Positions 1-41,997 of a stretch of DNA of 64,000 bases are shown here, piece after piece (the stretch's first letter is position 1; every line of letters starts with the position of its first letter). The translations under genes and the position numbers were made by a program. The DNA comes from Tricharina praecox. Its lineage: Eukaryota. The DNA lies in assembly GCF_024521635.1 (NCBI RefSeq), contig NW_026250423.1, positions 186,001 through 250,000 on the forward strand. Direction: 5' to 3'. The notes beneath the pieces were generated by a model that saw nothing but the letters and a program-made list of their open reading frames with translations, was not told where the DNA came from and did no database searches.

Positions 1-2770
1 CTCTTCCTCTGCCGCGCCGGCTCACGACTGTCCGGCTGGAATCCGGACGGAAACGCCGAGGAGGAGGGCGTGTCGCCTGCAAACTGTAGCTCTCTGGCGT
101 CGAGCGAGGTCAGTACGCGGCGCTTTCTGCATGGGGGGTCCGGTTGCAGCGGAAGCGATGCGGACCGGTCACCGATACTGGTAGCACCAATATCACCCGT
201 TGCGGAACGCGAGTTCGGCTGAGACGACGGAAGGCGTGTGCGGAAGCCAGACGGTGAAGATGGAGGCGGCGGCTCCGAGTGTGGATTGTGGCGTTGTGGG
301 GACGATTGCTGCGATGGTCGGGGTGATGTAGGGGCCGGCGAGCTCCCCGGGGTGTCTAAGTCCACCACATTTCGCAAGTGTCCTGGTGACGGCGATGAAG
401 ATGAGGTGCATGAATACGGGGTCCGGAAAGAGCGCGAAGACTGTTGTAGCGGCTTCTCGGCGGGTCGCTCGCCCGTAACCTCAACATCCGAATCAACCCA
501 TTCGTCTATGTCGATAAACTGCGGTGGCGGTGGTACACTTTCGCGTGAAGGGGTTTTAGCAGGCGTTCTACCGGTAATCGGAAGCTCCGAGTCTGAAGAA
601 TCCCATTCGTCTATATCAATGAATTGGGGCGCTGCCGTCTCAAATAGAGGGTTTTCAGTACCCCACATATCCATAAAAGAATCCGTATCCGAGTCATCCA
701 GTTCGTCGATATCGATAAACTGAGACAGTGGAGGGGTTTCACTGCTCTCCTCGGCATCCTTCCTATCCGATTCCTCCAGTACCCTCAAAACCTCACGCAT
801 CAGGATCTTCCCCATGCGCGGTGGCACAGCATTCCCAATCTGTCGCTTCACGTTGGTCGTCCCGCCAACGAAATCGTAATTCTCCGGGAAAGTCTGGATG
901 CATGCAATCTCGCGCAACGTAAATCGGCGGAGACCAGAGGGGTGGACTCCATTGTGGTTCCCGCCAGCCATGATCGTGCGCATGAATGGTAGATTCATTA
1001 CATTCTTGGTGTCTAGTCGCATGTTGTCGGGAAACCGCAAGGCCGGGTCGTTTGGGTTGTGAGCACTGATGCCAGGTTGAAGATTGCCTATGGCATCCCC
1101 AAGTGTGCGAGCGGGCTTCAGTCGGGTAGGCTCTGGTGGCGGCTTTGGGTACCAATGTGTCGGTTCGGGAAATTTGGGCGGTTGTTCCCCTGGACTGCGA
1201 GTTTGTTAGAATTGTAACAGCAGAAATCGAATACAAAAACTTACCAAGAAGCCATGATAATCAGCCGCTGCCTGGTCTGGGGGACGCCATATTTTACACA
1301 TGGCAAAATACTCCACCGGACGGAATATCCTGCCGACGTGAACTGATTGATTACAGCCCTGAACCACACCGGCCTGTGTGTCAATCCGAAGGTCTGCTCC
1401 AGTGTTGCAAACCGAGGCTTGACCTTCTTCAAGCAGTCACAGATGCAGAGCGAAGATGCTTCATTATCTTCATCGAACTGTCCAGGTGTCGTGTGGGCTG
1501 GTGAATGTGGCTGGCAAGGAGGGGACAGGTGCATGACATCCACATGGTAGTCCCCGGGTAGAGCGATGAACTGATCCGCCGAGAGATGGAATGCCTGAGC
1601 TTCGGGATATCGCTTTCTAAATGTCGCGATTGCATCCGTATCATGGTCGAACCCCCACGAATTGATGAATTTCGCCTGACTGGCGCCGCAAGACATGCCA
1701 CCGGCTCCGCAAAAGGCGTCCCCGAATGTGTACTTGTAATCCTTTTGTTGCTCTTCGGAATCGTTCGACGAACACTCCCTGGTAGTAACGTAAGGTTTCT
1801 TCAAGATACGTTCCCGAACCCGGAACATGGCGTCCGCCTCATCTTCCCTCAGCCGGCGGATTAGGCCAGTACCCCCGGGTTTCCGATTCTCGGGGCGTAC
1901 GTGGAGCGAGGTCGTGCCGTTAGTTTCCATATACCATCTGCAAACCAATCTACCAAGCTGCTCGGTCAAGCGGTCGCTACCCACGCGAAGTCTGTGGTTC
2001 GGGAAGTTGGCATTCGTCAGGATGATTTTGCGTCCTCTCAGGAGCTGGTCGCACTCAACTTGCTCGTCGGCAGAGATCATAACCAATTCGTTTAGTCTGC
2101 AATGAAGATACCCCAAAAGATTTCGAGTACGCAGGAATTTTTTCCCCTTCAATACAATACGTGCGCCATGATTGAGGCAGAGCTGTTTGATGGAGTTTAT
2201 TCGGATAAAGCTGCCATCCTTCAGCTCTACGTTGCTGCCAATACGTATTTTCGCGGGAAGCGTATGAATACGCATTTCCCCGCGAGGCTCTTGAAGTTCG
2301 ATCGTCCGGTATTCACAACAAATAGGAGAGCTGCATGAAGTTGACACTGGTTTCTGAGAAGTGGGTTGAACACCTGCGTCGGCCTTCAGAACTGGCGGAA
2401 TATCAGCAATCACCGATGAGGACATAACACGTTGCTGCAGCCTCTCTCTCTTCCCGTCCAAACCATGAAGAAACGGTCATACCTTGGTCCTCGACTTGCG
2501 ATTCATCGTCGGAAATTTCGAACAACTCTACGAGTACGGTCAGTATTGCCAGTCCTCACTGTCAACGTTTCGCCCTTTGATCCCACCTATGCCTTTGACT
2601 TCGCCGCTCAGATCAATGTAACCTTTCTGGAGGTACTCTGCCTCCAGTTCGATCCTTTTCCGCAATTCGGGATCGACGTTCTGATGACCATGCTGTGCCA
2701 CAAGCATGTCGATACCGATGCTTTCTCCGTTGAGCCTGAATGCTGGAAGCGGCGGCTGAAGCGACACCAT
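1..2770 (-). CDS. rid: Masc1/RID-family cytosine-5 DNA methyltransferase (3' end beyond window start; 5' exon boundaries approximate)
   Basis: Motif I DAFCGAGG, catalytic motif IV HLSPPCQ and motif VI EQT (the Masc1/RID variant of ENV), plus GVPQTRQR in ORF 1241-2461. An intron at 1244-1195 (GTAAGT..TCGCAG) joins an exon with HPSGLRRFTLREIACIQTFP and KRQIGNAVPP (motifs IX-X). That frame stays open to position 1. Short N-terminal exons are inferred from splice signals at about 2586-2528 and 2482-2391. Confidence 0.9.
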
Positions 2771-4786
2771 CGAGGTCGGCCGAGGGATGCGGGGGACGGT
2801 TTGATGATGCGATATTGGCGCAGAATTTTCTGAAGGACTCGTCAGATGTGGGACGTGTTATATGTTGTAGAGATGGAGGGAGCAGAAAGTGGGATGCGGA
2901 CGCAGTAACCGGTGGCTATGATTGGTAGAGGTGGAGTATTCTACCCTTCACAAAGAAGCAAACATAGTCGACAAAGACGGAACCATCAAACTGGACTGGA
3001 GCCCCTTGTGAAAAGAAGGGCACGGAAGCATCCGGGGGAGCCCATCTGGAGGACAGCCTTGTTGCTGAGCAGAGGCCGACAGAGCATGTTTGATGTGTGA
3101 AATCCAGGGAGCCAGAGAACGGACCAGGCCCTTCGGCGTAGGTACTCAAGCGGATAGCTCATTGGTGAGTCCACAGCGTGGAGGTAGACAGTGGCAATGG
3201 GGTCTGAGTGCGTATAGCGGATAAAGAAGCGGGCATGCCGCGACTGGAAGGCAGGCGGTAGTGTTTAGTAAGACTCGTGTTGATCCGAGAAGGCGGTAAC
3301 GTTTCACAGTGGTGTGTGGCGGTCGGCTTAGAACCGTCAGATGGACGACCCGCAGCCGTGGCATCCTCCCGGGCGTGTGAGATGCGATATGCAGGCACCC
3401 ATCCAATCATGGTACTGGTATTCGATGTGAGGTATTTTGCCATGCGCCAGACGAGATGGCCTATAGACATAGGGCGAGACTACTGGTAGTTATCTCAGCC
3501 TACCATCACGGCCATTGGGCACTCTGTTATGCATAAATCGAGATGTAAACAGGCGATGCGAAACGGATATCCCGCACGATGAGACTATAAATACTTTCTT
3601 GGTTCTAACTTCTACTCGTCTAAAGTCTTCCATGCTTCCTTCGCCGATGTCACCAAATGGCTTGGCTTGGCTTGGTATCAATGTCGACGACTCTTTGCCG
3701 CCATCGAAGAAAGTCCTTTGCAGCCTTGCTGGCGGGCCGTCAGTGTGGATTACTCTCTGTGCGCATGATGCTGATCGCTTCCGCCGTGGATTTAAATCTG
3801 TGGTTCCGAAGGAAAACACAGTTCGGACCATAAAGTCTGAAGATACCTAGTTTTTCCGGTATTCGCACAGGTCAGGAGTGCAAATCCCGGGCGTCCACTC
3901 GCGCACTGGAGATAAATCGTTCTAGGCTTTCTTCGTCTGGGACGCTAAGCTTGACTAGCGCACAGATCATCCATCATGTAGATCCCGCGACGGCCGAGTA
4001 TAAAAATGTAGGTAGCAAGGGGACCTCTGTGGCGAATTTTGCTGACGAATACCTAAGAGTCCGTGGTCCGCCACCGGTGCTGCCAAACCAGTATGAGGTA
4101 CCGTAAAACACCAAAACCCCCCACTGTCACCAGCATCAAAAAGCGAGTGGATGACTTGTTTTCGGACAGCTACCCTCGGTACATACATCACTTTTGCCCT
4201 TTGCAGAGGTCTGAAGCATACCTATGTCGACTTTGGTCGGCCTTGATCATCTTCGTTCTGGTATGTAACTCGGACCGGTTACCTCAGCACTGTCCGCACA
4301 CAACCTGTAAGACTGTACTAACGAACAACAGTATGATATTATTGACTCTTTTCGAATACGAGCTTCACATATACGCTGTTGCAAATGTACACTGGAAGTA
4401 AGTGAGCTCAGATATTCTCTCATACATAAAGGCAGACTTGGCTAACCAATGCATCGCTGAATAGGCTCGCCGGCAGACACTGGTGACTGCTTATACCATA
4501 TCAAGCAGACACAACCACTTCAATGCGACTTTACAAACGTTGAAGGCCTGCTGCACACAACCGGATCAGGAACAACCATAGAAACATGGCACTACCGTTT
4601 CCCTTTTGAATTTCCTTCCTGTTGTCACCTACATCCCCGTCATCTTTTCATCCTCCTTCTCTCCCTCTTTCTCTACCTCCCATCCATTCCTCGACCATCA
4701 TCCTCCACAGTCTACACACGAATCTAATACAAACTTTAACCTTCCTCCCATCTTTTCTTCATCGCCAAACTATAATCCTTTCATCA

Positions 4787-7489
4787 ATGTCTGACTCCGA
4801 ACATCCCTTTCCGCTTTCACATGAGAAGGAACTCAAGGAGCCCCGGGAAGAAGGCGGAGTTTCTGCTTCACTGATGACATCTTTGTACGCGGCTGCATCC
4901 AGGATGGGACCCAGTGTCCCGAGAGTCGATGACGAAGTCAATAACGAGAGCGGAATCATTAACGAGAACGGTTCGGTCGACGGATTTGTTGATTCCTCAG
5001 CTGAAGTTGACGAGGCTGATAACGACGACAACGTTGGCTCATCATCATCTAGTCTCGTTGGTCAAACGACGTCCGTCAAGATTCGCATCAGGTTCCGGAC
5101 CGGCCTAGCTGCGAACACTGGTCTCGGCAACCCACAGAGCTCTTCTATTTCCGTCGCTGGAAAAGCAGGCGCACACTCAGACGTTTCTAACCTTCACCCA
5201 CCTTTGGGATTCCAAACTTCCCTTCCATCCTCCATCCCATCCCCCATCTCATCCTCCATCCCATCCTCCATCCCATCCACTATCTCATCCTCTTTCCCGA
5301 CTCCTTTCCCTTCTGCAGGCGTATCGGCTGCCACCTCCTCTACAGAGGTTAATCAGACCGAGGTAGCCAGCGATGTCATCATTGCCTCCTCCTCTTCCTC
5401 CTCCTCCCTCGTTGCAGCTGTCGCGACTGCAGCCAAGAAGACGCCACGCGTGAAAGCCAGCTTTGGCACATCACCGTGGCCAGAACTGGAGCACCCCACT
5501 CCAGAAGAGTGTGCTGAGCTCCAGCAACTCTTGACCAAGGCACACGGCCCTTCGGAACGCCCGGACAAACTTATCGGTATGTATCTCCCTTTCTAGAGCT
5601 TTCAGATAGCGCTAACTTCTGTTCTAGTTAATAACGAAGTTTCTGGTTGCGGCGAAGTGCCGTGTGTCTTGGATGCACTTTTGAGGACAATCATGTCCTT
5701 GAATACAACGACCAAAAACTCGGGTAAGTTCGCCGGAAAGCATACTTCACCCTTGGATACTGAGTATATACTGACTTGAACTCCAGCGAAGGCCTTTCAG
5801 GACCTGTTGGCCCATTTTGGGACCGTTACTGTCGAGAAATTTCTCGACCCCTCGAAGAAGGGAAGATACACCAAGGGGAGTGTAGATAGCGTCGACTGGG
5901 ACGCTATCAGGACCAGCAGGGTCGAAGATGTCGAGGAAGCTCTGAAGGTTGGGGGCCTTCAGAACAAGAAGGCGAGGGTGATCCAAGCCATCCTCCGCCA
6001 AGTGTGGAACGAGGGGAAAGAGCGCCGCAGTCAGAAGTGGTTCGAGAAGTACCGCGAGAGAGCCGCGGCTCGCAGTTCCCGGCCTATGGCCGCTGACGAG
6101 GACTCGGGCTCCGAACTTTCGGACCCCGAGGATGATGACGATGGAGAGTTGTCGTTGGACCATTTCCATGAGATGGACAACATCACACTCATGAAGAATC
6201 TTACTGCCTTCGATGGCATCGGCCCGAAGGCCGCCGCGTGTGTGATGCTATTCTGTGAGTATTCCGTCCTACTGGCAACCGATTAGTGACTAATTAAATG
6301 TGATTCAGCGCTTCACCGCGATGTCTTTCCTGTCGACACTCATGTGCACAGGCTGACCAAATTCCTCGGATGGGTGCCACCCAACGCTACCGAGGTCACG
6401 GGCTTCTACCATTTAGATGTCCGAATTCCTGACGAGTACAAGTACTCGTTGCACAACCTGCTGATCCGCCATGGGCGGTCATGTAAGAAGTGTGCCGGGC
6501 GTGCCGAAGCCACGACCCCGAAGAAAGTCAAGACTGAACTTGACGAGGATGGCAACCCTATCAAGGCCAAGAAGATGAAGGTCGTCTGGGAAGGCAATGG
6601 CCTGATGAAGGAGAGGATGGTGGAGCTCGGAACGGACGATGAGGATGCGAACGATGACTGCGTCATCAACCATCTCGTCAACCGTGTCCGCAAGCCGCGC
6701 CGGAAGCCGAAGTCGAAGGGGATCAAGGAGGAGGAAGCCGATTCCCAGGATGGGGTCAATGTCGATGGCGACAATGGGGGCCCATCGGACGTGGCGGTCA
6801 CGAAAGTGACCATCGCCATCAAAGATGAGCCCTCTGAGCCTCAAGGGCTTGATCCCTCCATCCCCGCCGTTGCACAGCAACATGGGTCGGGCGAGAAGTC
6901 GAAGAGGAAGCGCCGGAAGGCGGTCAAAGAGGAGGCCTCTGAGCCTCAGGGACTTGATCCCTCCATCCCCACGGTTGCACAGCAACATAAGGTGGGCGAC
7001 AAGCCCAAGAGGCAGCGCAAGAAGACTATTGAAGAAGTCCTAGAACATCAGGACGACATCGAGGTCTACGATCTTGCGAGTGACGAGGATAGCGACTACA
7101 TGCCGCACAAAGTGCGTGTCGCCAAGCGTCACCCCGCGGGTCGCAAGCCGGCGACAAAGAAGGGCAAGGAGATCCCTAAGCCCGAGGACATCGCCGCTGG
7201 AGAACACGTTCTCCATAACTCACCGAGCGCCGACACCGATGTGCCGGACCTTGTCGCCGATTCCGGAAGCGACGACCATATGGGCGACAGCCCCGACGAT
7301 GGCTCCCCTTCCTCCGGCTCGAAATCGACCAGCCGCAAGCGTGCGCAGTCGATGCGGCCACCGGCCAGGACTTCGAAGCGTGCGAAGTCCGATGCGAGGG
7401 CTACGGCTCCGCAGGGCGGGATCAATGACGAAAACTTCGTCGTCCATGACCAGTTGGCAGAGGCCAAGGAGGTCGAGGAGAAGGATTGA
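4787..7489 (+). CDS. HhH-GPD (endonuclease III superfamily) DNA glycosylase/lyase, DEMETER/ROS1-related clade
   Basis: Exons 4787-5576, 5628-5723, 5787-6254 and 6309-7489 splice in frame. They give GCGEVPCVLDALLRTIMSLNTT, DSVDWDAIR, HhH motif FDGIGPKAAACV (catalytic Lys), FPVDTHVHRL..LGWVP (catalytic Asp), HGRSCKKC..C, and a long basic/acidic tail. Confidence 0.88.
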
Positions 7490-7677
7490 GAGATGTTCCG
7501 CATCTTGCAGCACAGTCTGTAGATGGACAGGATTTGGCAATACTTTGCCCGCGTCTCTTTTTCTTTTCTTTTCGCCTTCTTTTATGGTCTGGGCGTTCTG
7601 ATGAGCCGATCATGATCTTTTTCTCTTCCTTTTAATTTCCCCACTACAGATGGGTAGCGTCCGGTGTTACCGGACGA

Positions 7678-7870
7678 TGTTTGTTGTTTTTGCATCTGTT
7701 TTTGTTTTTTTCGGATTTTTTCGGATTTTTCGGGGAGTTGGATTGGTTATCCGGATATTTCTTTGTTGATTTTGTTTTCTGTTTTTTTGTTTTGTTTTGA
7801 TTTTTACTGTTTTTTCTGTTTTGTTTTCTAATTTTTCTAATTTTTCTGTTTTTTCTGTTTTTTTTCTGAT
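7678..7870. repeat. T-rich low-complexity tract
   Basis: Runs of T broken by G/C, with sub-repeats such as TTTTTTCGGA and TTTTTCTAA/TTTTTCTG. Confidence 0.7.
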
Positions 7871-9167
7871 GGCGTTTGGCGTATTTGTACTTGGGAATGG
7901 ATAAATGCTTTTTGCGCTTGAAGTGTGATATTCAGTGTTTACAGTGTTTTCAACCTACGGTATCCCACTCCTCCCAGTACGGCTTCTTTCGGGGGTTAGA
8001 GTACTTCCGCGTTGGCCCGTTTCTCTCGATACGTCTCGGCCGATGCCTCGCTGAGCGGATTCCCCATCGGCGGTGGTAGACTTGTGGAATTGAACCCAAG
8101 ACGACAATACCTAGGTAGGCAGTGGTGGTCCCGGACTCCTGGGCACGAGTTACTGGATGCTCAACTGCATGGGTAAGTAATCTGACCTTGACGTTATGTA
8201 TGTGGAATCATTAACTAAGGGTGAGTGTAGGTACTCGGCGGTGAACGATTGATGATGACTGACATGATTTTCCTGGTTAGGATGATGACGACGGATCGGA
8301 TATGTAGGTAGGTACGAGGGTTGTGTGGAAAGGACGGACCGGCACAGGGCTTGCAGTGACCAGCCAGCTACAGCATGCCGCTACGAGAGCCGTGAGAAGC
8401 CATCCAACCGTGTCGGTCCCGGTCTCGGGAACGCCGGGGCGATAGTTATCACCGCGGGCCAAGATTGGGGCTGGATACTCTACACCTCTCTCAGGAGTTA
8501 GGACATAGTTACACTGTGGCATACCTACCTGTGAGGTTGCGGCACTCACCGCTCCCGAACCGCCCAATTCTTGCCGCCAGAAGGAGAAGGGAACCGGCAA
8601 TACACACCTTGTATGTGCCTACTCCGATCAGGCCTTGTGGCTAGTTATGTATCATAAATCCCATGGTCCACGGTCCATTCCCTGCGGAAGTCCATCGTGG
8701 AAGCCAGAGCAATCCATGGAATTATTCCACTTGTCCGTCACTGGCTCTGGCATCTCGAGGGTATAACGGGTACCGGTACTACCGTTATACCACCGCTCCG
8801 CTCCTAGTCCAGTCTGGAAAGGAAAGGAAACTTGGGAAAGGCGTTCGGTCGGATTCCGGATTCCTTTGCCTTGTTCAAGATTCAAGACGCTCTGGTAGGT
8901 TCGGCGGCGGTGGATCATGGATGGGAGCGTTGGTAAGCCGTAGGTATTTCTTTGTCTTGATTCTTGCTGCTTTGGCTTCGGTCTGCTGGTAGATTTGCTG
9001 ATTGATGGACGATGGGACGATGAGATCATGGGATCATGGGATCATGGGCCGATGAGATCATGGGCCGATGGGCAAGGATAATGACTGATCACTGGCGAGT
9101 ATGATTGCCAGGTTTGACTCTTGAGTGGCTTGATCCGAACTAAACTGAACGAATATCTACCCGAACT

Positions 9168-9776: not shown

Positions 9777-11618
9777 TCAAGTTTCACTCCTGCCCCCCCT
9801 ATCCTCAGCGCCCAGCAGTGCCGTAGCCTCCTCTCCGTCTTCTCCTTCCAGCTCCTTCCATCGCAACGCAAAGCTCAGCCCCAATCCCACAGCCGCAATG
9901 CCGCCAAAAGTTCCCCACGCCAGCCACTCGCCTCCCTTCTTTTGAAACCCGGCCGTGAACAGAGCACCGGAGGCGAACGGTCCGATGGCGCGGCCGGCAG
10001 CACTGACGGTCTGCAGGAAGCCATTGAGCGTGCCGAGAGTACTAGGTTTCGGACTAGCATTGGTAACGAGCAGCATGGCGCAGGTGAGGCCCGTGACCGC
10101 GGCGATGGACTTGACCAGCAGTGCGCCGCCGAGTTGCGTCCAGATCAGAGCCTTGGGCGAGGATGCATTTACGCCGACGAGTGGCATCGCAAAGAAGGCG
10201 AGAACGAACCCGAGGAATGCAAGGCGGTAGCACCATACGTTGCCCACCCGCCGCTCAATCGGCGTGAAGAGGAAGGCTTGGAAGACGATACCCGCGGCGC
10301 CAGAGAGCGAGAGGAGGAGTCCTATCTCCTTCGGGCTCAGTTCGCGGCCGCTGGGGCGGGGACCGGAGGCGTAGATCGGGTATAGTGAGTTGAAGGCGAT
10401 GTTATTCAGGTTGAAGAGGGTGTAAGTTATCAACAGGTAGACTGGTAATCGGTCAGTAATGGTTTTAAATAGGGATATTGATCGAGGCAGCTTACCGATC
10501 TGCGGGACCAGAATCTCCCGGTAAGAAACCTCCTCGCCACGCTCCGGCATGAAGACGGGACACGCTTCAGCCAATGTTTCCCGGCTACTGCCGTCAATCT
10601 CTCCGTCCGCCGACCGTCCCACGCGCAAGTACGAAGGCCAGTAAGAGGCGGAAAACTGCCAGAGCCAGGTAAACAGGCACCTGACTCTCTCACCCAGAGG
10701 CGGCAGATCCTGCGCTTCGGCCAGACTCTCGTCGAGCATGAAGAGGCTCATCACCAAGTCCACCAGGAGCAGCCCGAATGCGACGATGTTCGGAAGTAGG
10801 TATGGATACTTGTGAAACAGGTGTGAGATTGGCCCACTGGGATTAGGAGCCGGATCGACGAGCAATCCGCCGACGATCGGTCCCGTGATTGCGCCGAGAC
10901 CGTAGATGATGGGTAGCCACGCGAAGGCTGACGTTTGATTGGACTTGTCCGTGATCTCGCCGAGGACAGTGGACACGACGCCTATTCTGCGTCAGCATCA
11001 ACACCTCACACATACAACGGTCTCGCCCATGAAATACGCACCAGCATTTGCATTTACCAAACCCATCAAGACCTGCACCGTGATAGCCTGAGTGAGGGTA
11101 CGACAGAAGCCGAACGCCAAAAAGCACAGACTCGTCAAGAACGTGCCCATCAGGATCACCGGCTTGCGTCCGATCCTATCGCTGAGCCTGCCCCAGAAGA
11201 CGTTCGTCGCGAACTGTGCCGCGGCAAAGCTGCTCGCGATGATGCCCACGTACAGTCCCACCCTGCCCTCATCAACCTCCGGGAATGTCGCGGCCATCTC
11301 CGGCAGGTACGGCGAGATCGAGTTCAGCGCCGTCTGCTCGGCAAGACTAATCACCGCGAGAATGATCAGCTGCCGCCGCGGGATCGGGGTGCCGGATGAG
11401 TTTTCGCTGCCTCCACCGCCGCCGCCGCCGTTGTTGCCGTCGTTGCGCATCGATCGAAGAGATGAGGAACCGGAGCCGATGCCTATTGCGTCTGGGGAAC
11501 CGCTGTTGAGCTTCGAGTGAGGCGGGGGACGGCCTCTGTTTGACGGGGGAACGACGCCGGGGAAGGTCTGGTAGTGGTAGGACGACTGTCGTCGCTGCAG
11601 AAGCGTGCGGCCTGTCAT
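9777..11618 (-). CDS. Major facilitator superfamily transporter (YCR023C/ZIF1-like)
   Basis: MFS motif A WGRLSDRIGRKPV, many hydrophobic helices, and GTLNG..AAGRAIGP. Introns at 11041-10982 and 10495-10442. Confidence 0.88.
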
Positions 11619-12986
11619 TGATTCGGATTACGAAGCGTGGTAACTAGTGGTGGTAACGGTGGTGGTAATCGCGCGTCAAGACTGGTGTATCCCTCTCTCT
11701 CGCTTTCTTTCTCTCGTGCCCGACGACGAACTTGAAGTGAAAAGGCTCCTTCTCTTCTCCCGTGTACTGCTCGCGTTTCTGCGGAGTTCGGTGGTGACAA
11801 AGTTAACCGGGAACATGCTACCGTACCTACGTTCTTTATGCTACTCCTCTCCTATGACGCAAACAAGTCCGGCTGTACTATGCGGTACTCTACCCACTAA
11901 CGATGTACTGACTGGGTTTAGTGCCATGGACGGCCCCCATGGAAGCGGACGGTGGGCGATCGCCCATCCACCCACCCCAGATGGAGATGGGCCGCCCGGT
12001 TGCACGTCCCTATCCCTGCCCCCTTTGTTGACCAGTGACCACGACGAATCGACAACGACAACGGCTGGAAGCATCACGACAACAGAGGTGGCTGGTAGGC
12101 TATCTGCACGGGCATTCGAGATCGATACTGACAGGACTAAATAGTTAACTTAGCCCGAAAGAGAGCCAGCACAGCCTCCGAACCGACCAAGGAGTTCTCA
12201 CTTCTCAGAGACCACCGAGTCCCGATTTGCACTATTCGGTCCGACTCATCAATGATCGTGATGAAGGTTTTCGGGTTTCGCCTTCAAGAATCAAGCCTCC
12301 GAGGCGTAACCCCGCAGTCCGGTATCTCATCCACCGCTGCCCAGAGCCATCGCGGCGAATTCCAAATCCGCGTGACGGCAGAAACGAGCTGCTCAACCGG
12401 TCGCCGGGCCAATCATCCGCAATGCAAGCGCTAGGAGGCATGTCAAGTGCACCTATGATGACCGAGTGTTTCTACCACGAGCTATCGCCGCGTCTTTTGT
12501 CGTCTTCTGGCCACAGCTATCGCGAGTCCGCAACTCCCACCCGCGATGTCTACCGGCTCCAGTCCATGGAAAATGACATCGGCGTGCGCCTCTGCGGTCG
12601 CTTTCAATCCGGCGGCAGTCTTGAAGATACCTATATGGACATGGTGGATATTATACCTATTTTTACACGATTACCTTGAGCTTCATCACAGCCCTGGGAA
12701 TACACCGCGGGAAATATAACATCCACTTCGTTCTGGCGAGACACTCGCAAACGCCCGATTACTGCACCATCTCATGTGACCTCGCCCGATGATCTCCAAT
12801 CCGCCTGCGTAAAGCTGACCGACTATCACTCACTGAACCATGCATCTCATGTACGGGCTGGTATGGTAGGTATGCAGGTACTACCCCGCACCGTCTTTGC
12901 ACTTCACACGATTAGCTGTTCCTGCACGTTCGACATCCCCATCCCGCCATCGACATCCCCACTTCCACCCGCCAACACCACGCACG

Positions 12987-13921
12987 ATGCCCCCACCCCC
13001 TCCCCCTCCCCCTCCGCCACAAAAGCAAGCCCAAAAGACTTTAACAATCCTGCTCACCGGCTTCGGCCCCTTCGTACGAATAAGCGACAACCCGTCATGG
13101 TCCATCGTGGAGACGCTCTTATCCAGCGGACCACTTACCATCCGCACTCCTTCCACACTCTACACAATCCACCTCCTCCCCCACCCCTCCGCCATAAAAG
13201 TCAGCTACGCGACTATCGATGCGCTCGTCCCCAGCCTGTGGGAGACAGGGACGCGTGCTTGGGACTACGTGCTGCATATTGGCGTTGGCCGCGAGGGTGG
13301 GTTCAAGCTTGAGCGAAGGGCGTGGGTAGACGGGTATGTGCTCAGGGATGTGGATGGGCGGTTTCCGGGGGATGGAGGGGTGGGGGACGGGGTGGGTAAG
13401 GGGGAGGGGAAGGGGAAGGGGAAGGGGGAGGGGGAGGGGAAGGGGGAAGAGAAGGGCGTCGAGATGAAGGGCGTGCATGGCGGCGAGCAGGCGCTGCCGC
13501 TAGACGAGCGCCCTGGAAGACAGCTGTACACCGCACTGGACGTTGAGGCGATCGCGAAGTTCGTCGGCGAGAGCGTTACTGTGCGTTCCCCTCCCCATCC
13601 CCCCCCTCCCCCACTTCCCTTCCCCTCCCCGCCCCCGCCCCCCGGCCCCCAGGTCGCCAGGCTGACTCTACACAGGCCAAAGAGGACGCCACACTAGTCG
13701 ACATCGTCGCCAGCGGCGATCCGGGTATGTTCCTGTGCGGGTATACGTTCCGCGCGTCACTGCTGGAGGCGGAGAAGCGTGGCGAGGAGGAGAGGGCGCG
13801 CGTGCTGTTTCTGCATGTGCCGCCGAAGGGGAAGAGGTATGGTGTTGATACTGGGGTGGACGTGGTGCTCAAGGTGGTGGAGGGGATGGTTAGATGTGGG
13901 GAGGGGGCGGGGTTTACGTAG
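12987..13921 (+). CDS. Pyroglutamyl-peptidase I (peptidase C15)
   Basis: ILLTGFGPF, DNPSWSIV, LHIGV, LERRA (Glu), DPGMFLCG (Cys) and LFLHVP (His). Intron at 13581-13675. Confidence 0.85.
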
Positions 13922-14128
13922 AGTCTTAGAAGGGCTGTAGGAATATGGGACTCGGGTGTATAGGATAGAACGGGATAGTGAATGACTCCACAGTCTGGCG
14001 CCTGGAGTTGTATGGTACTTGTAGATTCTCAATTTTGCGTCTATATACACCCCCTCCCTTCACTGTACAACCAGCCAGCCAACGGTTCGTTCACCAGCAA
14101 CCTATCCCCGCAAGTGACAATCTATGCA

Positions 14129-16048
14129 TCAAAAGGCTTCGTCCTGTCAGCAATCACTCGTCTTCCAGGAGCACGACCAGGAGCACAATCAGACTTACTA
14201 TGTTCAGTACTATCCTTCCCGACGGCACTAGTAGCCGAGGAGTTCGCAATGCTCTGGAGGATTCCATCGACGTAATTTGCGCCGCTCCACTTCTGATGGG
14301 TGAGGACATCGCATCCGAGCTCCTTCTCCTTCTTCTGGACGAGCTCTACATACGCGAGCATTCCGTCTGTCTTGAACCTGCGGGAGAGCTCGCACGTGGC
14401 GGCAGCGCCCGAGTGCAGTCCGGCGAGCGAGATTAGCTGCAGCACGAACCCCTCCTTCGCCATGTCCCAGACGAAGCTCTTCAGCCCGGCCTCGTCGAAG
14501 CCCTCGTTGAGCCAGTTGAAGCTGGGCGAGAGGTTGTAGACGAGCCACTTCCCTTCGCCGGGGGAGCCGGGGGCGCGGATCTCGCGCGCGAAGCTGCGCG
14601 CCTGCGCGATCGACGGCTTTTTGGTCTCGAGCCAGAGAAGGTCGGCGTAGGGCGCGAAGGCCTGCGCGCGCTTGGTGGCCGCCGCCATGCCCGCTTTGAA
14701 GTGGTAGTAGCCTTCGCGCGTGCGCGGCACGTCCCACGAGAAGAAGATGTCGCGGCCGAGGGCGGATTTGGCGGCGGCTCGCGCATCGCTGTTGCTGCGT
14801 GTGCTGGCGTTGGTGAGGTACTCGTCGATTTTGGATTGCGGCGCGGAGGAGGCCTGAAGGGCTTCGACTACCGCTTCGTCGAAGGTCACCAGCTTGTGCT
14901 TGGATACCCACTCGGCTTCCACCTCGGCGATCTTCTCGCCGCTGACGCCGGACCGCTCCATCTCGTAGAGGACTTCGCTGAGGGGCTTGACGTCCTCAGT
15001 CACTCCGAGGATGTATTGCTGATCGCGGGCATCGACGGAGCTGCTGATGAGCTTGCCGGTCTCCGAGTCGGTGCGGGCGATGAGGAGGTTCTCGGTGCCC
15101 ATCAGGTCCCATTGGAAGCGGGTGGCGATCAGGCGGTTGATGTGCTCGCCCGTGGGGACGAGGACCTTGCCGGACAAGTGCCCGCATTTCTTGCCGCCGT
15201 GCATCTGGTCCTCCATGTGGATTGCCGCAGCGCCGTTCTCGGCGAAGAGTTTGGCGAGCTTCATCACCGCCGAAAGTCCACCGTGTCTGGCCATCGTCAG
15301 CACCGAAGGACACCTGATCCATTGGGGGGTGGGAGCCTACCCAGTATCCGCATCGGCAATGATGGGCCGGAGGTAGTCGATGTACGGTGTCTTCTTCTTG
15401 TCCTCGAGCGACAGGGCTATTCTCTGATCCCAATGCCGCTTATCGTGCAACTGCTGGGCCTTGAACAATCGCTGCACCTGATTCGGCACCGTGTTGTACG
15501 GATAGTCTCCCAAGTCCGGCGAGACCTCATTGGTAGTGGTCAAGATACTCGAAGCTGCCCATCCGCTGACATACAGGACCTCCTGGTTCTCCGCCTGCTG
15601 CGTCATCTGCACGGGATCGATAGCACCCACTTCGCACTTCCGTTAGCACATCCCACCCCGCCTCCGCCAATCCCTCAGCACAGTAGGAAAGAAACGCACT
15701 CGTGTGCACCGGCAACCCCTCCTTCGCCCTCGTTTCCAGCAGACTGTACAACTTCCTCGCCATGGTTGAGCTGGGATAATCCTGCTTCAGGGTGCCGCGC
15801 TTTGTCGCGACCTCCCGCGCACTGTAGGGTCGCTTTATCCCCTTCCACCGCGGACTCTTCCACCACTCCTCGATGGCCTCAATCTCGCTCCGCAACAGCG
15901 CATCCTCCTGTTCCGGTGTGGGAGCGACGTGTAGGGCAGTGGAGGACATGCGTGTGGTGACGACCGTGAACGCCGATTGTGCATGCGAGGTCGTGGAGAG
16001 GATGCGCGGGAGCTGCGGGACGCGGACTCGCGGGAGCTGGCGGAGCAT
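14129..16048 (-). CDS. ICL2: Mitochondrial 2-methylisocitrate lyase (isocitrate lyase family)
   Basis: [26 protein letters not shown] and [17 protein letters not shown] is the methylisocitrate-type motif rather than FITLAG. Arg-rich presequence [10 protein letters not shown] tiny last exon after an AAG acceptor gives ..STEHTF*. Confidence 0.88.
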
Positions 16049-18109
16049 GGTGTGTGTTCGGTACGTGCGTAGTGGTGGTGGGAACAGTAGGCGGCCGGCG
16101 GTGTGGTGGGGCAGAAGCGTGGGCTTTGGTGTTCCCCACGATGACCATATACCTACTCCACCTACCTGGGTAAGTACTCTAGCACCCGCCCCCGCAGGTT
16201 GGTTACCCAGGGCTTCCCGAGGTAGGCCGAACGGAGCTGAGAGTCCCTGCGGTCGATCGATATGCACAGTACGGCGCATCATAGAGTAACGAAACGGTTA
16301 TGTGTGGAGAAATGCATTGAGAGACTACAAGTTGCCCACGGGAGCATCTTTGGAGCTTCGTCGCTGTATTGTACTATCATAGACAACCGCGATCACATGC
16401 TAACCAGCAGCTAACTATCGGCAACTACACGCGTAGCTTACTCCACCTCCACCTCTCACTCCGAGGCGTCCAGCAGCAATACATCTACCCAAGTGCCAGG
16501 TAGTATGTACAGACATCGAAGCCTTGCAGTCGACTGCACAAATAATAGCTCGACTTATTCTTCTGTTTTTCTGTTTTCCTGTTTTCCTGAGATACGGACT
16601 TCTGGGGAAGAAGCCACGTGATTTTATACCGCACCGCCGGTCAACAGAGCTTCTCCACGCAAAACCACCCTTCATTATATCATACTCTTACCGAGTCAAG
16701 TCGCACGGTTGCATGTAGTCCAGAGTATCCTCGGTATACGATATACACAGACGAAACAGTGCTAATTCGAGAAGCGCAGCATCATCTCGTGCCAGTCTGC
16801 CCGACCGAACATCGTGAGGACCCAGCAGTGCCACCTCCCTAGGTATCCGGCGCATATCGAATAATCTGGTGTGATTCCCCCCAAACGCTCAAGGAGCCTC
16901 CGCATTGTATTGTACATAAATATGTACCCTCCAACATACATGCCCAGTATTACCTTGCGAGCAAGGGCTGTCCTGTCCTGTCCGGTCAGGCACCGCTCGA
17001 GGGTTTCTGGGTACTCTCGATAGGTACCCGTATTCTCATGCATGCCCATGTACTGTAGGTACATACCGGTAGGTACTCTAAGTGCTTGTTTCATTCTGCG
17101 GTGTCCTTTCCGGGGGAAAATTCGGCGCCAGCTTGCTAGAGGAGAATCAGAGATGGGGCCGCACACGGATGGGAAGTAAATACTTACCTACCTGGTGCTT
17201 GTTGCTATCATAGCATGAAACTTGCTGACACTGGGAGAACGGTCGGTCGCGAAGGATAGGTGGGCTCGGTGAGTTCTGGTGTGATCGGTGGTTGCTTGGC
17301 TCTGGAAATATAGAATCCTTGATCGTGGGGAGAAGGTTGGGGGTTTTCGTTGGACTGGATTCGGAATACACTCCGTAGTACCATGGAGACTGTATGTGTT
17401 GTGCTGGTACATAGAAGGTTCGGCTTGGCGTGCATGAAGCAACTCGACTGTAGCCACGCTCGTGTGGCGGGGTGGCTAGGGTGAATGGTGTCTGTTAGTA
17501 AGGGAGAGGGGCGAACCTAAGCTGGGATTGAGATTCAAGAGCGAGCTTCTTCCCTCTCTCACTAACCTCTACTGAACACAGAATCACGAGAATCGCAGCT
17601 AACTCCACCTTCTTCTGAGGATAGACTTCTGCCCTTTTTCGATGATTCGAGGCGCAGCTCACCCACATCGCTAATCTACCACACACGGCTAAAGCCCGGT
17701 CAGCACCCCACACGACTACCTAGTATTAATACCTGGCGCATTCACGTAGGCACAATCATATATGCCCTCCAGCTTCTGGATTTCTGCCTCCACATGCCCC
17801 ATTGGCTGACATGCTGATCTCGTCGTCGGTCGGTTGGTCTGCGGCTGAGCCACGATGGTACGGTACCTAGTCTTCAGCAGGTCTCACCTGGCGAGTGTGC
17901 AGTGCAGCAGTAGTAGTACAGGGGGGCGCGAGTGGTCACGACGGAGACAAGAAGGGAGGAGTCTGGACTGCCGTGGAGCGCTGCGAAATGTATATATCCT
18001 CGAGAGCCCAGCCGAGAAATTCGCATCGGTCTCATCCAAGTCCCTGGGTACATACATCATATCCAGTCGTCACGAAATATCACCCGCCCCGCCGATCCCC
18101 TCCAAAAAT

Positions 18110-25741: not shown

Positions 25742-28550
<2,809 letters not shown>

Positions 28551-38779: not shown

Positions 38780-41700
38780 ATGGCCTCGACCACCACATCG
38801 GCCTTAGAGCCAGCACCCGCATCTTCACCAGCCGTGAAAATCTCCCTCCCACTGGTACTTCCCCCTCCCCCTCCTCCGCCTGTCGACTCATCACTGACCT
38901 AGTTACCACTCAGCCCTACCAGCAAGAACTCTTCACATCACTGCTCACATCCGACGCGCTCCTGATCCTTGCGCGCGGCCTGGGCCTGCTGCGCATAGTC
39001 ACGAACCTGCTGCACGCGTACGACGTCGCGGGCGAGAACCTGGTGCTGCTCGTCAACGCGAGCGAGGATGAGACCGACTGGGTTGGCGAGGCGATGGCCG
39101 AGACGGGCGGGGTGGGCTGCGCAAAGGGGTTGAGAGTAATCAATACTGAGGCTATGGGTGTGGCCGGGAGGAGGAAGACTTATGAAAGGGGGGGAGTCAT
39201 GGCGGTTACTAGTAGGATACTGGTGGTGGATTTGTTGACCGGTGAGTATGGCAAGGGATGGCGAGGGGGTGGGGGATGCGGGGTGCGGGAGGGGGCTGAT
39301 AAGGAGGGGCAGATAATATTCCGTCGGATAGGATTACGGGGGTGGTGGTGTTGCACGCGGACCGGTAGGTTGCAGCAGATCTGACGGTGGGGGGGGGGGG
39401 GGGGGGGGAGTGGCAGCCAGGCAGGCAGCTGACAGCCCGAACGTAGGGTGACTGCGACCTCCCTCGAGGCGTTTATCCTCCGCGTGTACCGCCGCAAGAA
39501 CAAGTCCGGGTTCATCAAGGCGTTCTCGGACAACCCATCGGGGTTCGCGTCCGGCTTCTCTCCGCTGTCGACGATGCTCAAGAACCTGCACCTGCGCACG
39601 CCGACGCTGTACCCGCGCTTCCACGTTGCCGTCGCCGAGTCGCTCGAGAGCAAGACCGCGGAGGTAATCGAGCTCGACGTCCCGCTCAGCCCGGCCATGC
39701 TGGATATCCAGAACGCAATCCTGCAGTGCATCGAGTCCTCGCTGTCGGAGCTGCGCAAGGGCGGGAACTCCCGCGAGATAGATATGGAGGACTGGAACGT
39801 GGAGGCGGCGCTGCACCGTGCGTTCGATGTCACGCTGCGCCGCCAGCTGGATCCCGTCTGGCACAGGGTGAGCTGGAAGACGAGGCAGATCGTGGGCGAC
39901 CTCAAGGAGCTAAGGGATATGCTTTCGTACCTGGTGACGTACGACGCCGTGAGCTTCCACCAGTATCTCGAAGGCATCCTGGCTACGCAGAGCTCGGGCG
40001 CCACAAGCATGGGAATGGGGAGGATGAACCAGTCCCCGTGGCTGTACCTCGACGCTGCGCAGACGATCTTTGAAACCGCGAAAAGAAGGGCGTATGTGGG
40101 CACTCTGCCGAAGAATGGGGGTAGTGGAGCAACAATCCCCGCCACATTACACCCGGTGCTTGAGGAGCTGCCGAAGTGGGCGACGCTTTCGGGGATCCTC
40201 GATGAGATCGAGCGCGAGGCGGTAATGAATCCGCAGCTTGATCATGGGACCAACGGGACTGTGCTCGTCATGTGCTCGGACGCAAAGGAGTGTCGCCAGC
40301 TGAGGGAGTACCTGCAGACTGTCAATCGGCCAGTCGAGGATGAGGAGGATGGGGAGGACGATGCGGAGGACGATGATGGGGAGGAGAAAGAGGGCGGGAG
40401 GGTCACGCATTCAGCAAACTACATGATGCGGCGGAGACTCCGCGGGTATCTAGCGTGGAAACAGGATCTTTCGAAGTTCAAGGCGGCGTATAACGAGATG
40501 AACCGAGGCACCGGCGGGGGGGGTACTGGGGGTGCGCAGATGCAGAAACGGATGCAGGAGCCCCAGAGTTTCCGCGGGAGAGCACCAGCCAATAAACGCC
40601 GGCGAATGCGCGGTAGTGGGAATGTCGGCTCTTCTTCTAAAGCTACGGCGGGTGCACAGCCCTCGGATGAACAGGCTGTCAATGTGGCAGCGCTGTGGCA
40701 GAGTCTCCAACCGACTGAAGAGGAGGCGGCGGCGAAACAGGAGATTGCCGTCGATCCGTTGGAACACATGGAGGACTTCTATGAGCTCTTCGAGCTGAAG
40801 AATCTGGTGGTTGTCCACCCGTTCAGTGGGGATATGGATGATCGACTGCTTGAGGAGCTGCGACCCAGGTGGATAGTCATGTATAATCCCGACACGGCGT
40901 TTGTACGGCGGGTTGAGGTTAGTATTATGGCTGGTTGGCGATGGGTGACGGGTGACGAGTGGTGACTGGTGACGAATGGTGACTGATATGGCGTGGACAG
41001 GTGTATCGAAGCTCCCACAATGACCGCCAGGTAAAGGTCTATTTCCTCTACTACGGTGACTCGGTGGAGGAGCAGCGATTCCTGAGCGCCGTACGACGGG
41101 AGAAGGACGCCTTCTCCAAACTGATCAAAGAGAAAGGCGTACGTCTCCACCCTATCCCCAGTAGTCGCACCCACTGACCTCCATATGTAGTCCATGGCCG
41201 TAACCCTGACCACCGACGCCCACACCGACATCGACCAAGCTGAGCTCCTGCGGACAATAACCAACACGCGACTCGGGGGCGGGGGCAAACTCTCGGCCAC
41301 AGCCGAACCACCACGGGTAATCGTGGACATCCGGGAATTCCGCTCGTCGCTGCCCTCACTGCTGGACGCGCGCGGCACCTCACCAGTCCCCGTCACGCTC
41401 ACGGTGGGCGACTACATCCTGACGCCCACGATCTGCGTGGAGCGCAAGTCGATCAAGGACCTGATCGCCTCCTTCCGCAACGGGCGGCTATACACGCAGT
41501 GCGAGGCGATGAGCGCATCCTACGCGCAGCCGATGGTACTAATCGAGTTCGAGAAAGACCAATCGTTCAGCCTGGAGCCGTTTGCGGGCGCAGATACCTC
41601 CTCCTCCTCCACCGCCGCGCCGGGGGGCGACGATATCCAGGCCAAGCTTGTCCTGCTAACCATCGCGTTCCCGAGGATGTCGTTTATCTGGAGCAGCAGT

Positions 41701-41997
41701 CCGCACCAGACCGCGGAGATATTTGCGGAGCTCAAGAGCGGCCATCCAGAGCCGGACGTGGACGCGGCGGTCGTCGTCGGGCTCGAGGCCGGCGAGGACC
41801 CAAATAGTAGCTATAACAATGCGCCGCAGGAGATGCTGCGCGTCATCCCGGGCATCAGCGGTAAGAACGCTAGGCTCGTCATGCAGGATGTCGAGAATCT
41901 CACTGAGCTCAGCAATATGGACGAGGCGGACATCGCGAAGCTTGTGGGGAAGGAGGCCGCGAAGAAGGTTTGGAGGTTTTTTAATAAGACGTTTTGA
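38780..41997 (+). CDS. RAD1: XPF/ERCC4 structure-specific endonuclease (Rad1/Rad16/MEI-9)
   Basis: LLILARGLGL, VTSRILVVDLL, FIKAFSD and LEELPKW. Nuclease motifs VDIREF, GDYILTP and CVERKS. C-terminal HhH IPGISGKN. Multi-exon. Confidence 0.95.

Follow-up and report, generated by a model that had tools for sequence, protein, structure and literature searches.

The first 7,489 bases of the window (the whole 64,000-nucleotide stretch of Tricharina praecox DNA that was analysed) hold two divergent genes arranged head to head, a cytosine-5 DNA methyltransferase (DNMT) gene on the minus strand and a predicted HhH-GPD DNA glycosylase gene on the plus strand, with start codons 2,016 bp apart. Their features are as follows.

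1..1194, minus strand: DNMT last exon; PF00145 match (3.6e-12), splice joint 1194/1245, motif IX at 929-909, motif X at 836-819
1195..1244, minus strand: DNMT intron, 50 nt, GT..AG; RNA-contig joint in run X1
1245..2391, minus strand: DNMT main exon; PF00145 match (2.4e-24), conserved N-terminal region
2392..2482, minus strand: DNMT intron, 91 nt; joint in runs X1 and X2; holds ATG 2425, the plain-ORF start
2483..2527, minus strand: DNMT 45-nt exon encoding LFEISDDESQVEDQ; joints on both sides in X1 and X2
2528..2586, minus strand: DNMT intron, 59 nt; joint in X1 and X2
2587..2770, minus strand: DNMT first coding exon; RNA cover; taken from the first in-frame ATG (putative start)
3342..4600, no strand: gap between transcribed regions, about 1.3 kb, with little or no RNA-contig cover
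4787..5576, plus strand: glycosylase exon 1; N-terminus of low complexity, rich in Ser, then the beginning of the conserved core (SPWPELEHPTPEEC...)
5628..5723, plus strand: glycosylase exon 2; upstream intron inferred, downstream joint in RNA contigs
5787..6254, plus strand: glycosylase exon 3; DSVDWDAIR at 5885-5911, acidic variable insert, helix-hairpin-helix (HhH)
6309..7489, plus strand: glycosylase exon 4; FPVDTHV with D461 (6335-6337), stop codon 7487-7489

Both genes are transcribed, as RNA-type contigs of the same two runs (X1 and X2) carry each of them, and the exons agree letter for letter with an NCBI protein entered under the name Tricharina praecox. Contig cover extends to about 3341 on the DNMT side and resumes at about 4601 on the glycosylase side; RNA depth was zero across bins 3342-4369 in both runs and 0.44 in bin 4370-4626 (X2 only). 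The interval 3342..4600 is presumed to be a shared promoter region, and none of the eight intergenic ORFs scanned had a Pfam match. The initial annotation had placed two real, diverging genes here, separated by about 2 kb without a convincing gene, and the Pfam matches, the splice joints and the empty spacer all agree with it.

The DNMT gene comprises four exons. Two of its three introns lie close to the 5′ end of the coding sequence, and all three were read from spliced RNA-type contigs. These joints place the ATG at 2425 within an intron (2392-2482), and after splicing the reading frame has its first ATG at 2770, the probable start codon. Upstream of it RNA cover runs on to about 3341, representing either 5′ UTR or more 5′ exons. 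The 5′ exons are kept in an alignment with the Sphaerosporella homologue, where the LFEISDDESQVEDQ exon aligns to IELF..IEISDDEDE. The main exon carries motifs I (1726-1697), IV (PPCQ, 1525-1511), VI (TLEQT, 1405-1391) and VIII (1279-1262), while the last exon ends in a long Ser/Pro/acidic tail; no stop codon is reached by window base 1, and the C-terminus is therefore missing.

By every sequence criterion tried, this DNMT is a Masc1/RID-class enzyme, as had been proposed. A passage in PMC6709928 gives as hallmarks of the class EQT or EET replacing ENV in motif VI and a remarkably short target-recognition region (TRD) of about 80 amino acids. Motif VI of the window protein is EQT, as in 97 of 120 homologues (another 17 have EET, making 114 of 120 together), and its TRD, between motifs VIII and IX, is 89 amino acids long. 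Neither BAH, RFTS, CXXC nor PWWP was found in the exons scanned, the two large ones, as far as window base 1, matching PF00145 only (Pfam E ≤ 0.1) and the first coding exon giving no Pfam match at E ≤ 0.001. With Masc1 (Ascobolus immersus), RID (Neurospora crassa), DmtA and PaRid it thus shares a single PF00145 domain with motifs I, IV, VI, VIII, IX and X, the EQT motif, the short TRD, the lack of BAH, RFTS and CXXC, and variable N- and C-terminal extensions. It differs from these enzymes in its length (at least 856 amino acids), in three QFIDIDE[LW] repeats within the C-terminal tail and in its three introns. By homology it would belong to the enzymes of premeiotic repeat silencing and sexual development.

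The glycosylase gene has four exons (ATG 4787) encoding 844 amino acids. Introns 5724-5786 and 6255-6308 are backed by RNA joints, and intron 5577-5627 is inferred from the sequence and NCBI model P0001 (PF00730 match, 1.5e-08); bases 6002-6100 are retained in the RNA contigs but spliced out in the NCBI model. The core in exon 1 matches P0001, P0002 and P0003. Exon 2 encodes GCGEVP with the invariant C271 (5648-5650) and the RT..S..T...N helix (S287, N294), and exon 3 contributes the helix-hairpin-helix FDGIGPK with the predicted catalytic K443 (6227-6229). Exon 4 supplies C510 and C513 (6482-6493), a 55-residue Lys-rich spacer and C569 (6659-6661), followed by a disordered tail rich in Lys and Asp, in which a repeat occurs twice (6827-6883, 6935-6988). 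The DSVDWDAIR and FPVDTHV segments and the catalytic Lys and Asp noted in the initial annotation are all in place, as K443 and D461 for the latter pair: K443 occurs in 257 of 257 family-alignment sequences, D461 in all 255 that have a residue there, and S287 in 256 of 257. The four invariant cysteines (C271, C510, C513, C569) probably hold a metal, in place of the C-terminal 4Fe-4S motif of related enzymes.

As judged from its sequence, the glycosylase is a member of a large, uncharacterised Pezizomycotina HhH-GPD family separate from DEMETER/ROS1. A profile search recovered 580 cluster representatives at E ≤ 1e-30, with relatives at E values from 1e-72 to 1e-231, and the window protein carries every listed family invariant. 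Members are named in databases as DNA glycosylase or HhH-GPD family base excision DNA repair protein, and come from Pezizomycetes, Eurotiales, Dothideomycetes, lichen-formers and one Sordariomycete, with an abundance in Aspergillus. The insert between the VDW helix region and the HhH ranges from six to 147 amino acids in the family (48 in the window protein). None of 141 members with a VDT[HN] core, the window protein included, has the C-x6-C-x2-C-x5-C iron-sulfur motif. A near look-alike cluster is mostly from Basidiomycota, an observation that serves as a lead only.

Among solved structures, the closest relatives are Deinococcus EndoIII-1 and Arabidopsis ROS1, about equally. ROS1 came out on top with phmmer (4.5e-15, EndoIII-1 next at 1.2e-14), while EndoIII-1 led in the profile search (6.7e-24, ROS1 1.4e-22) and in Foldseek with the predicted model (pLDDT 85; 2.4e-10, ROS1 2.1e-09). 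With ROS1/DEMETER (PDB 7yho, 7yhp, 7yhq) the protein shares the HhH-GPD core, the aligned catalytic Lys and Asp, the segments D.VDW.AIR and FPVDT.V.R....LGWVP, a top or near-top match in sequence and fold, and a Lys-rich disordered region, which is C-terminal in the window glycosylase. Identity over the fold is nonetheless only about 24–25%. Membership of DEMETER/ROS1 was rejected, as both the four-Cys iron-sulfur motif and the DME C-terminal domains are missing; in exon 4 neither the RRM-fold nor the permuted CXXC domain was found at Pfam E ≤ 0.1, only a weak HhH-GPD match, in keeping with the earlier remark that no DME-type C-terminal region could be recognized. We take Pfam to contain models for these domains. 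At what we presume to be the DME split site, the window glycosylase seemingly reads without a long linker. The description ‘DEMETER/ROS1-like’ therefore survives as far as ROS1 is among the closest solved relatives, but not as a family assignment, given a separate fungal family without 4Fe-4S and an EndoIII-1 that is just as close.

Deinococcus radiodurans Endonuclease III-1 and III-3 (PDB 4unf, 8a5c, 4uob) gave the best profile and Foldseek matches, the EndoIII-1 alignment spanning the VDW helix, HhH, VDTHV and HGR up to the first cluster cysteine. Bacterial EndoIII is a protein of about 240 amino acids with the canonical iron-sulfur motif, whereas the fungal family has the N-terminal GCGEVP Cys with C-x2-C-x(~14)-C, the acidic insert and long tails. 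Endonuclease III/Nth membership was likewise rejected: the fold agrees, but the C-terminal four-Cys motif is absent. A name-level likeness also exists to Arabidopsis At3g47830, the fifth DME paralogue, after which an Aspergillus lentulus family member was automatically named; a 2023 review describes At3g47830, in the part that treats it, as lacking several DME functional domains and uncharacterised (PMC10573277).

The linkage of the two genes proved old but patchy, and we regard it as a lead, not proof, of joint action. In Sphaerosporella the DNMT and glycosylase accessions (...955 and ...957) are two apart on one 134,810-bp contig. Nine fungal metagenome contigs had enough upstream flank, and three of them (L002, L004 and L008, one Eurotiales-like) have, 1 to 5 kb upstream of the glycosylase, a RID-type DNMT gene in divergent orientation. 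The outer flanks of the window, of L002 and of the L004/L008 pair differ from one another. Among eight named genomes, with the DNMT and glycosylase hits taken as putative orthologues, linkage is lost in five and absent or loose in seven; the loose cases are Tirmania and Pycnora, where the two genes share a contig at distances of 40 and 97 genes, which is more linkage than chance placement predicts. Most Pezizomycetes checked have the genes on different contigs. The initial annotation had called for such a synteny survey and had counted absence of linkage in related genomes against a writer/processor module: the pair does recur, in Sphaerosporella and three of nine metagenome contigs, but the named genomes fall largely on the other side. 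Our literature search found no paper reporting a RID-type DNMT–glycosylase linkage.

A purine gene (amidophosphoribosyltransferase) complicates the arrangement. On the Eurotiales-like contig it lies between DNMT and glycosylase, so a bidirectional promoter common to the two is not what has been conserved; in L004 it, not the glycosylase, is the divergent partner of the DNMT, and L009, the contig closest to the window, has it upstream without a DNMT. Adjacency of amidophosphoribosyltransferase and glycosylase is also kept (L004, L009 and eight fused Aspergillus models), which serves as a control for neutral retention, and the position of the purine gene between the pair in one lineage leaves room for the neutral survival of an old block.

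The data establish the gene models of two separate transcribed genes, their family assignments and the recurrence of the neighbourhood, whereas the enzymology of both proteins and the metal site are deduced. On balance we favour inherited synteny over a functional module, and hold it the more probable account, if by no means a secure one, that the glycosylase is a general base-excision enzyme. The head-to-head pair would go back to an old Pezizomycotina gene order in which the DNMT was followed, in some cases after an amidophosphoribosyltransferase gene, by the glycosylase; scattered lineages still have this order, and in most it has been broken. The protein would be a bifunctional-type HhH-GPD glycosylase/AP lyase flanked by disordered tails, which may flip a base into an EndoIII/ROS1-like pocket using Lys443 and Asp461; its substrates are most likely damaged or mismatched pyrimidines, with any tie to RID products optional. 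Adjacency by chance, peculiar to this genome and without history or meaning, agrees with the separate contigs of most Pezizomycetes but is very improbable, since the same arrangement occurs in Sphaerosporella and three distant metagenome contigs, and by our own estimate two given genes among some ten thousand should adjoin in well under one in 1,000 genomes. A same-orientation pair in at least three distant groups, despite reshuffled outer flanks, could reflect selection for proximity, i.e. function. Such a module, with the glycosylase acting on RID-type products in premeiotic nuclei (excising off-target 5mC or processing T:G or U:G intermediates) and proximity kept for co-expression, would fit that shared neighbourhood in the window, Sphaerosporella, L002, L004 and L008, the loose linkage in Tirmania and Pycnora, the presence of ROS1, a true 5mC glycosylase, among the top solved relatives, and the two RNA-type runs that each contain both genes. 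A fungal 5mC glycosylase is absent from the reviews searched, and the word ‘glycosylase’ has no occurrence in the text of a 2026 review (PMC13297926). We nevertheless consider a module unlikely, as linkage is lost in five of eight named genomes and six of nine metagenome contigs, the L004 and L009 arrangements favour the purine gene, and the protein lacks the DME C-terminal domain and iron-sulfur motif. The look-alike cluster would point the same way, as Basidiomycota are not known to carry RID. The family is moreover abundant in Aspergillus, yet 5mC went undetected in A. nidulans in the work reported in PMC2432034, as far as the portion cited here goes.

A different alternative, which we rate as distinctly improbable, is a catalytically altered family that kept the AP-lyase Lys/Asp pair but lost efficient base excision, serving mainly as an AP lyase, or binding DNA or chromatin by means of the Lys-rich tail, and having no particular connection with the DNMT. 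Of the T606/D611-type residues that ROS1 needs for base excision, S287 is conserved in the family, but the position that we tentatively match with D611 is variable (G, N, M, A or S; T in the window), so the Asp required for base excision (ROS1 D611, EndoIII D44) is seemingly not conserved; if that is true, the reading as a general EndoIII-like enzyme becomes shaky. OGG-type HhH-GPD enzymes function without that Asp. The long, disordered tails would suit an altered role, but strong purifying conservation of many pocket-region residues over 257 sequences fits an active enzyme. In the relevant part of PMC3045615, ROS1 D611V abolishes glycosylase activity and retains the lyase, as such a family would require.

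It has long been asked by what route RID-type enzymes bring about C-to-T mutation or transient methylation, and why sexual development depends on them even where 5mC goes undetected. The recurrent, ancient neighbourhood of a RID-type gene and a ROS1/EndoIII-1-like glycosylase offers a concrete candidate: the Pezizomycotina-wide family might, as a rather doubtful but explicit proposal, be the missing base-excision partner of RID/Masc1-type enzymes, excising 5mC or processing the deaminated intermediate premeiotically. If true, this would explain why the two genes have remained neighbours from a time preceding the Pezizomycetes–Eurotiomycetes split, the lack of stable 5mC in fungi that need DmtA or PaRid for sex, and the means by which RIP outcomes become fixed or off-target marks are removed, and the four differently placed cysteines would represent a metal site of new design within the EndoIII/DME lineage. 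If the synteny is inherited only, both gene models are corrected, a large glycosylase family, unusual in its cysteine layout, is defined, and the label ‘DEMETER-like’ is still revealed as too strong. The family also occurs in model fungi (Aspergillus, Penicillium and a Sordariomycete) that are amenable to knockout and assay.

Our preferred reading, for which we would claim somewhat better than even odds, is that the window opens with two ordinary genes of known classes, that their adjacency was inherited, and that the glycosylase is a base-excision enzyme. The two genes and the assigned genes just past them are laid out as follows.

Features at the start of the window
3-1205, minus strand: methyltransferase (DNMT) reading frame matching PF00145 at 3.6e-12 (Pfam)
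1195-1244, minus strand: DNMT intron
1241-2476, minus strand: DNMT reading frame matching PF00145 at 2.4e-24 (Pfam)
2392-2482, minus strand: DNMT intron
2483-2527, minus strand: 45-nt DNMT coding exon
2528-2586, minus strand: DNMT intron
2587-2770, minus strand: DNMT coding sequence with the first in-frame ATG
4787-7489, plus strand: glycosylase gene, from start to stop
5577-5627, plus strand: glycosylase intron
5724-5786, plus strand: glycosylase intron
6255-6308, plus strand: glycosylase intron
9780-11627, minus strand: MFS transporter gene
14125-16297, minus strand: isocitrate lyase gene

The three DNMT introns are skipped by RNA-type contigs, and their CT..AC ends are GT..AG on the minus strand. 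These joints come from contigs of two public runs with at least 99% likeness to the exons; the runs are labelled only 'RNA?' and were judged RNA-type solely from the spliced joints and adapter ends, and their contigs give no expression ranking. Two soil metatranscriptome runs yielded no contig matching the region. Because the contigs skip 2392-2482, the ATG at 2425 is intronic and was ruled out as the DNMT start. The 5' exons are real coding sequence, since they have a counterpart segment in the Sphaerosporella brunnea homologue, where LSGE..DIELF..IEISDDEDE aligned with LSGEVKGIELFEISDDESQ of the window DNMT. The encoded protein measures 856 aa or more, its C-terminal part lying beyond the window start.

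Masc1/RID enzymes are marked by EQT (or EET) in place of ENV in motif VI and by a remarkably short target-recognition region of ~80 aa, while BAH, RFTS, CXXC and PWWP are accessory domains of other methyltransferase classes (main text in part and figure legends of PMC6709928). The window DNMT has TLEQT in motif VI and 89 aa from motif VIII to IX, and a Pfam scan of its two large exons and its first coding exon found no family other than PF00145. The 120 top-ranking homologues with a length of 689 aa or more all contain PF00145, and their motif VI reads EQT in 97, EET in 17 and ENT in three, with one mixed match and two without a match. Judged by these sequence features (motif VI, target-recognition region and domain content), the Masc1/RID label given in the initial annotation is the right one.

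The tail of the DNMT carries three copies of QFIDIDE[LW].DSD (722-492, minus strand), accompanied by an N-terminal ELFEISDDE (2587-2502) and by VVDLDT (368-351), and motifs of VDLT or IDLT type stand at comparable positions in the Pezizomycete homologues. Such hydrophobic cores with acidic residues resemble SUMO-interacting motifs, a likeness that suggests possible SUMO-dependent recruitment. Separately, a RID-type DNMT model from a lichen fungus (P0115, 1,378 aa) has additional 3'-5' exonuclease, HRDC and PMC2NT domains, Rrp6-like, and is probably another merged model of neighbouring genes.

The start codons of the two genes are 2,016 bp apart. RNA-type cover reaches ~3341 on the DNMT side and resumes at ~4601 on the glycosylase side, with zero depth in bins 3342-4369 in both runs, and none of the eight intergenic ORFs scanned has a Pfam match, which confirms the earlier description of two genes diverging over ~2 kb with no convincing gene between them. 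In the glycosylase, the second and third introns are supported by RNA-type contig joints, and the first, inferred from sequence, is spliced identically in the NCBI model P0001 ('DNA glycosylase, partial [Tricharina praecox]'). That model, truncated at both ends, is letter-identical to the window exons save for the removal of 6002-6100, and this identity makes it very probable that the window derives from T. praecox or a close strain. P0001 treats the 99-nt stretch as an intron, yet two RNA-type contigs leave it unspliced and Peziza echinospora conserves its beginning (VWDEAQERK); the public model is thus probably wrong here. One X2 contig, of depth 2 and with 30 nt on its shorter side, leaves out 157 nt within 5618-5776 with CT..AC ends, a minus-strand-type splice inside the glycosylase gene that may reflect antisense transcription or an artefact of assembly. 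A two-copy repeat, [EA]SEPQGLDPSIP[AT]VAQQH followed by a basic K/R run (6827-6883 and 6935-6988), lies in the glycosylase's disordered C-terminal tail.

Single exons of the glycosylase gave no significant Pfam match; P0001 matches Pfam HhH-GPD at 1.5e-08. A family profile built from three Pezizomycete sequences and run against 1.84 billion proteins retrieved 4,609 cluster representatives at E<=0.001, of which 580 reach E<=1e-30; the 150 highest-ranking all lie below 1e-72. The named members span Pezizomycetes, Aspergillus, Penicillium and Dothideomycetes, together with many lichen-formers and the Sordariomycete Thyridium; as a lead only, a cluster of language-model look-alikes is mostly Basidiomycota. 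The catalytic lysine and aspartate, noted from the start as kept, are K443 (helix-hairpin-helix) and D461 (VDTHV), which are invariant or nearly so in a 257-sequence family alignment, as are R283, T284, S287, T290, N294, C447, H463, W473, H486, H500, H506 and G507.

Four further cysteines, C271 (GCGEVP; 5648-5650), C510 and C513 (6482-6493) and C569 (6659-6661), are each kept in 255-256 of the 257 members. The C-x6-C-x2-C-x5-C cluster motif of EndoIII and DME occurs in none of the 141 family members having a VDT[HN] core; the common layout is C-x2-C-x14-C plus the N-terminal Cys, with a 55-aa Lys-rich spacer in the window protein compared with a family median of 14. A CCCH site (C-x2-C...C-x3-H) was ruled out, its His being found in only 174 of 257 members whereas C271 is invariant. 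We infer that C271, C510, C513 and C569 form a putative metal site of new topology.

How close is this enzyme to DEMETER and ROS1? Kinship was judged by ranks in a PDB profile search, phmmer and Foldseek rather than by a tree. The profile found Deinococcus EndoIII-1 (6.7e-24), ROS1 (1.4e-22), E. coli EndoIII (4.1e-10) and human NTHL1 (4.4e-07), and phmmer from P0001 gave ROS1 at 4.5e-15 and EndoIII-1 at 1.2e-14. An AlphaFold model (pLDDT 85.2, pTM 0.83) ranked its Foldseek matches in the same order as the profile (EndoIII-1, 2.4e-10; ROS1, 2.1e-09; EndoIII-3, 2.2e-09; NTHL1, 8.7e-07). The glycosylase is therefore equally close to a bacterial EndoIII paralogue and to ROS1 by these ranks. The conserved segments for which it had been called 'DEMETER/ROS1-like' are really common to it and the plant enzymes, but the label is too strong: EndoIII-1 is as close, and the cluster motif and C-terminal domain of DEMETER are both absent (motif search and Pfam scan), the latter as the initial annotation had said. 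One Aspergillus member is automatically named after Arabidopsis At3g47830, a fifth, uncharacterised DME paralogue that is missing several functional domains (2023 review, PMC10573277, in part).

Base excision by ROS1 requires T606 and D611 (PMC3045615, in part). S287 of the glycosylase matches T606. The putative counterpart of D611 is a variable position in the family. We regard altered catalysis as improbable; on the preferred reading the protein would be a bifunctional-type base-excision enzyme, with an unusual four-cysteine site, for some pyrimidine lesion or mismatch.

Eight named genomes had homologues of both genes among the matches listed, and were compared as homologues. Linkage was close in one, loose in two and absent in five.

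Linkage of the two genes in named genomes
Sphaerosporella brunnea: one 134,810-bp contig, KAA8904955.1 and KAA8904957.1, at most one annotated protein between
Tirmania nivea: shared 1.4-Mb contig, accessions 97 apart
Pycnora praestabilis: shared 585-kb contig, locus tags 40 apart
Rhizina undulata, Choiromyces venosus, Morchella conica, M. snyderi, Kalaharituber pfeilii: the two genes on contigs of unequal size (accessions also widely apart in Rhizina and Choiromyces)

Beyond these genomes the single further lead is P0049 with P0251, whose contigs are both 26,225.

Fungal metagenome contigs were scanned with the glycosylase profile only, and 80 of 581 confirmed loci were kept. Twenty of the 80 match the window glycosylase at about E<=5e-30, and nine of these (L001, L002, L004, L005, L006, L008, L009, L013 and L018) extend at least 9 kb upstream. 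The window DNMT matched only L002, L004 and L008 of the nine by tblastn, in each case upstream and on the opposite strand.

Gene order and outer flanks of the pair
L002: 569-aa PF00145 ORF (2.4e-44; motif VI, EEA) and glycosylase ORF ~1 kb apart, in the head-to-head arrangement of the window; DNMT side, unassigned ORFs, then acyltransferase; past glycosylase, Edc3-like gene and PIF1
L004: DNMT (EET), amidophosphoribosyltransferase on the other strand, glycosylase; DNMT side, PrpD; past glycosylase, aldehyde dehydrogenase
L008: DNMT (EQT), 372-aa ORF without assignment, glycosylase; DNMT side, BRCT protein; past glycosylase, aldehyde dehydrogenase
Window: DNMT side, beyond the window end; past glycosylase, MFS and isocitrate lyase

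L004 is Eurotiales-like, for the glycosylase it carries shares 75% identity with the Thermoascus thermophilus protein, and L004 and L008 may not be independent, since they have the aldehyde dehydrogenase in common. The synteny survey proposed in the initial annotation came out mixed: the pair does recur, in Sphaerosporella, L002, L004 and L008, but five of the eight named genomes show no linkage and six of the nine contigs no upstream DNMT. Since Pyronemataceae, the L004/L008 group and L002, three distant groups at the least, retain the pair, we hold adjacency by pure chance to be very improbable indeed.

The closest contig to the window among the loci kept is L009 (54-68% identity), which is a fairly close relative, since the MFS and isocitrate lyase genes lie past its glycosylase (13750-14832 and 16127-17257) in the same order and on the same strand. 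Its upstream genes are amidophosphoribosyltransferase and MRS2, and a DNMT is missing there. In distant fungi the gene immediately before the glycosylase, read in the same direction, encodes amidophosphoribosyltransferase (L004, 6895-8914; L009, 7080-8997), and the two are merged in eight Aspergillus models of 1027-1042 aa among 120 matches listed, which are probably annotation fusions of neighbours. This adjacency is itself old, so that a housekeeping purine gene has been the glycosylase's neighbour equally long. The conserved feature is not a shared bidirectional promoter, and neutral retention of an ancestral block must be taken seriously as an explanation; the head-to-head pair would then descend from an old Pezizomycotina block.

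Could the glycosylase nonetheless be functionally coupled to the RID-type enzyme? In favour, the pair survives selectively while its flanks, which differ among the window, L002 and the L004/L008 group, are reshuffled, and the glycosylase is kin to ROS1; yet L009 lacks the upstream DNMT, and the purine gene has been beside the glycosylase just as long. We think coupling unlikely, and the proposed 5mC writer/processor module a reasonable but unproven lead resting on real, ancient and patchy synteny. In searches that stopped short of subscription journals and supplements, we found no paper joining repeat-induced point mutation, DNA glycosylase, RID and synteny, and none on HhH-GPD with Neurospora, 5-methylcytosine and fungi. 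Nor did we find a relevant one on Tuber methylation, glycosylase and demethylation, and DEMETER with Pezizomycetes and glycosylase brought up only plant and method papers among the best 15 matches. The accessible part of the dmtA paper (PMC2432034) does not mention neighbouring genes; a 2026 review of fungal DNA methylation (PMC13297926), searched by term, has no mention of 'glycosylase', 'DEMETER' or 'ROS1', and the only characterised demethylases it names are Dmt1 and CcTet.

Just past the glycosylase stop, 7501-8000 (GC 0.38, AT skew -0.56) has minus-strand ORFs made of K/N/R-rich simple repeats and looks like low-complexity DNA, not a gene. Other genes with Pfam assignments in the window encode an Arg5,6-type acetylglutamate kinase/reductase (25742-27835, plus strand), an ERCC4-domain nuclease (41191-41994, plus strand) and an amino-acid permease (42438-43706, minus strand), none obviously tied to methylation.
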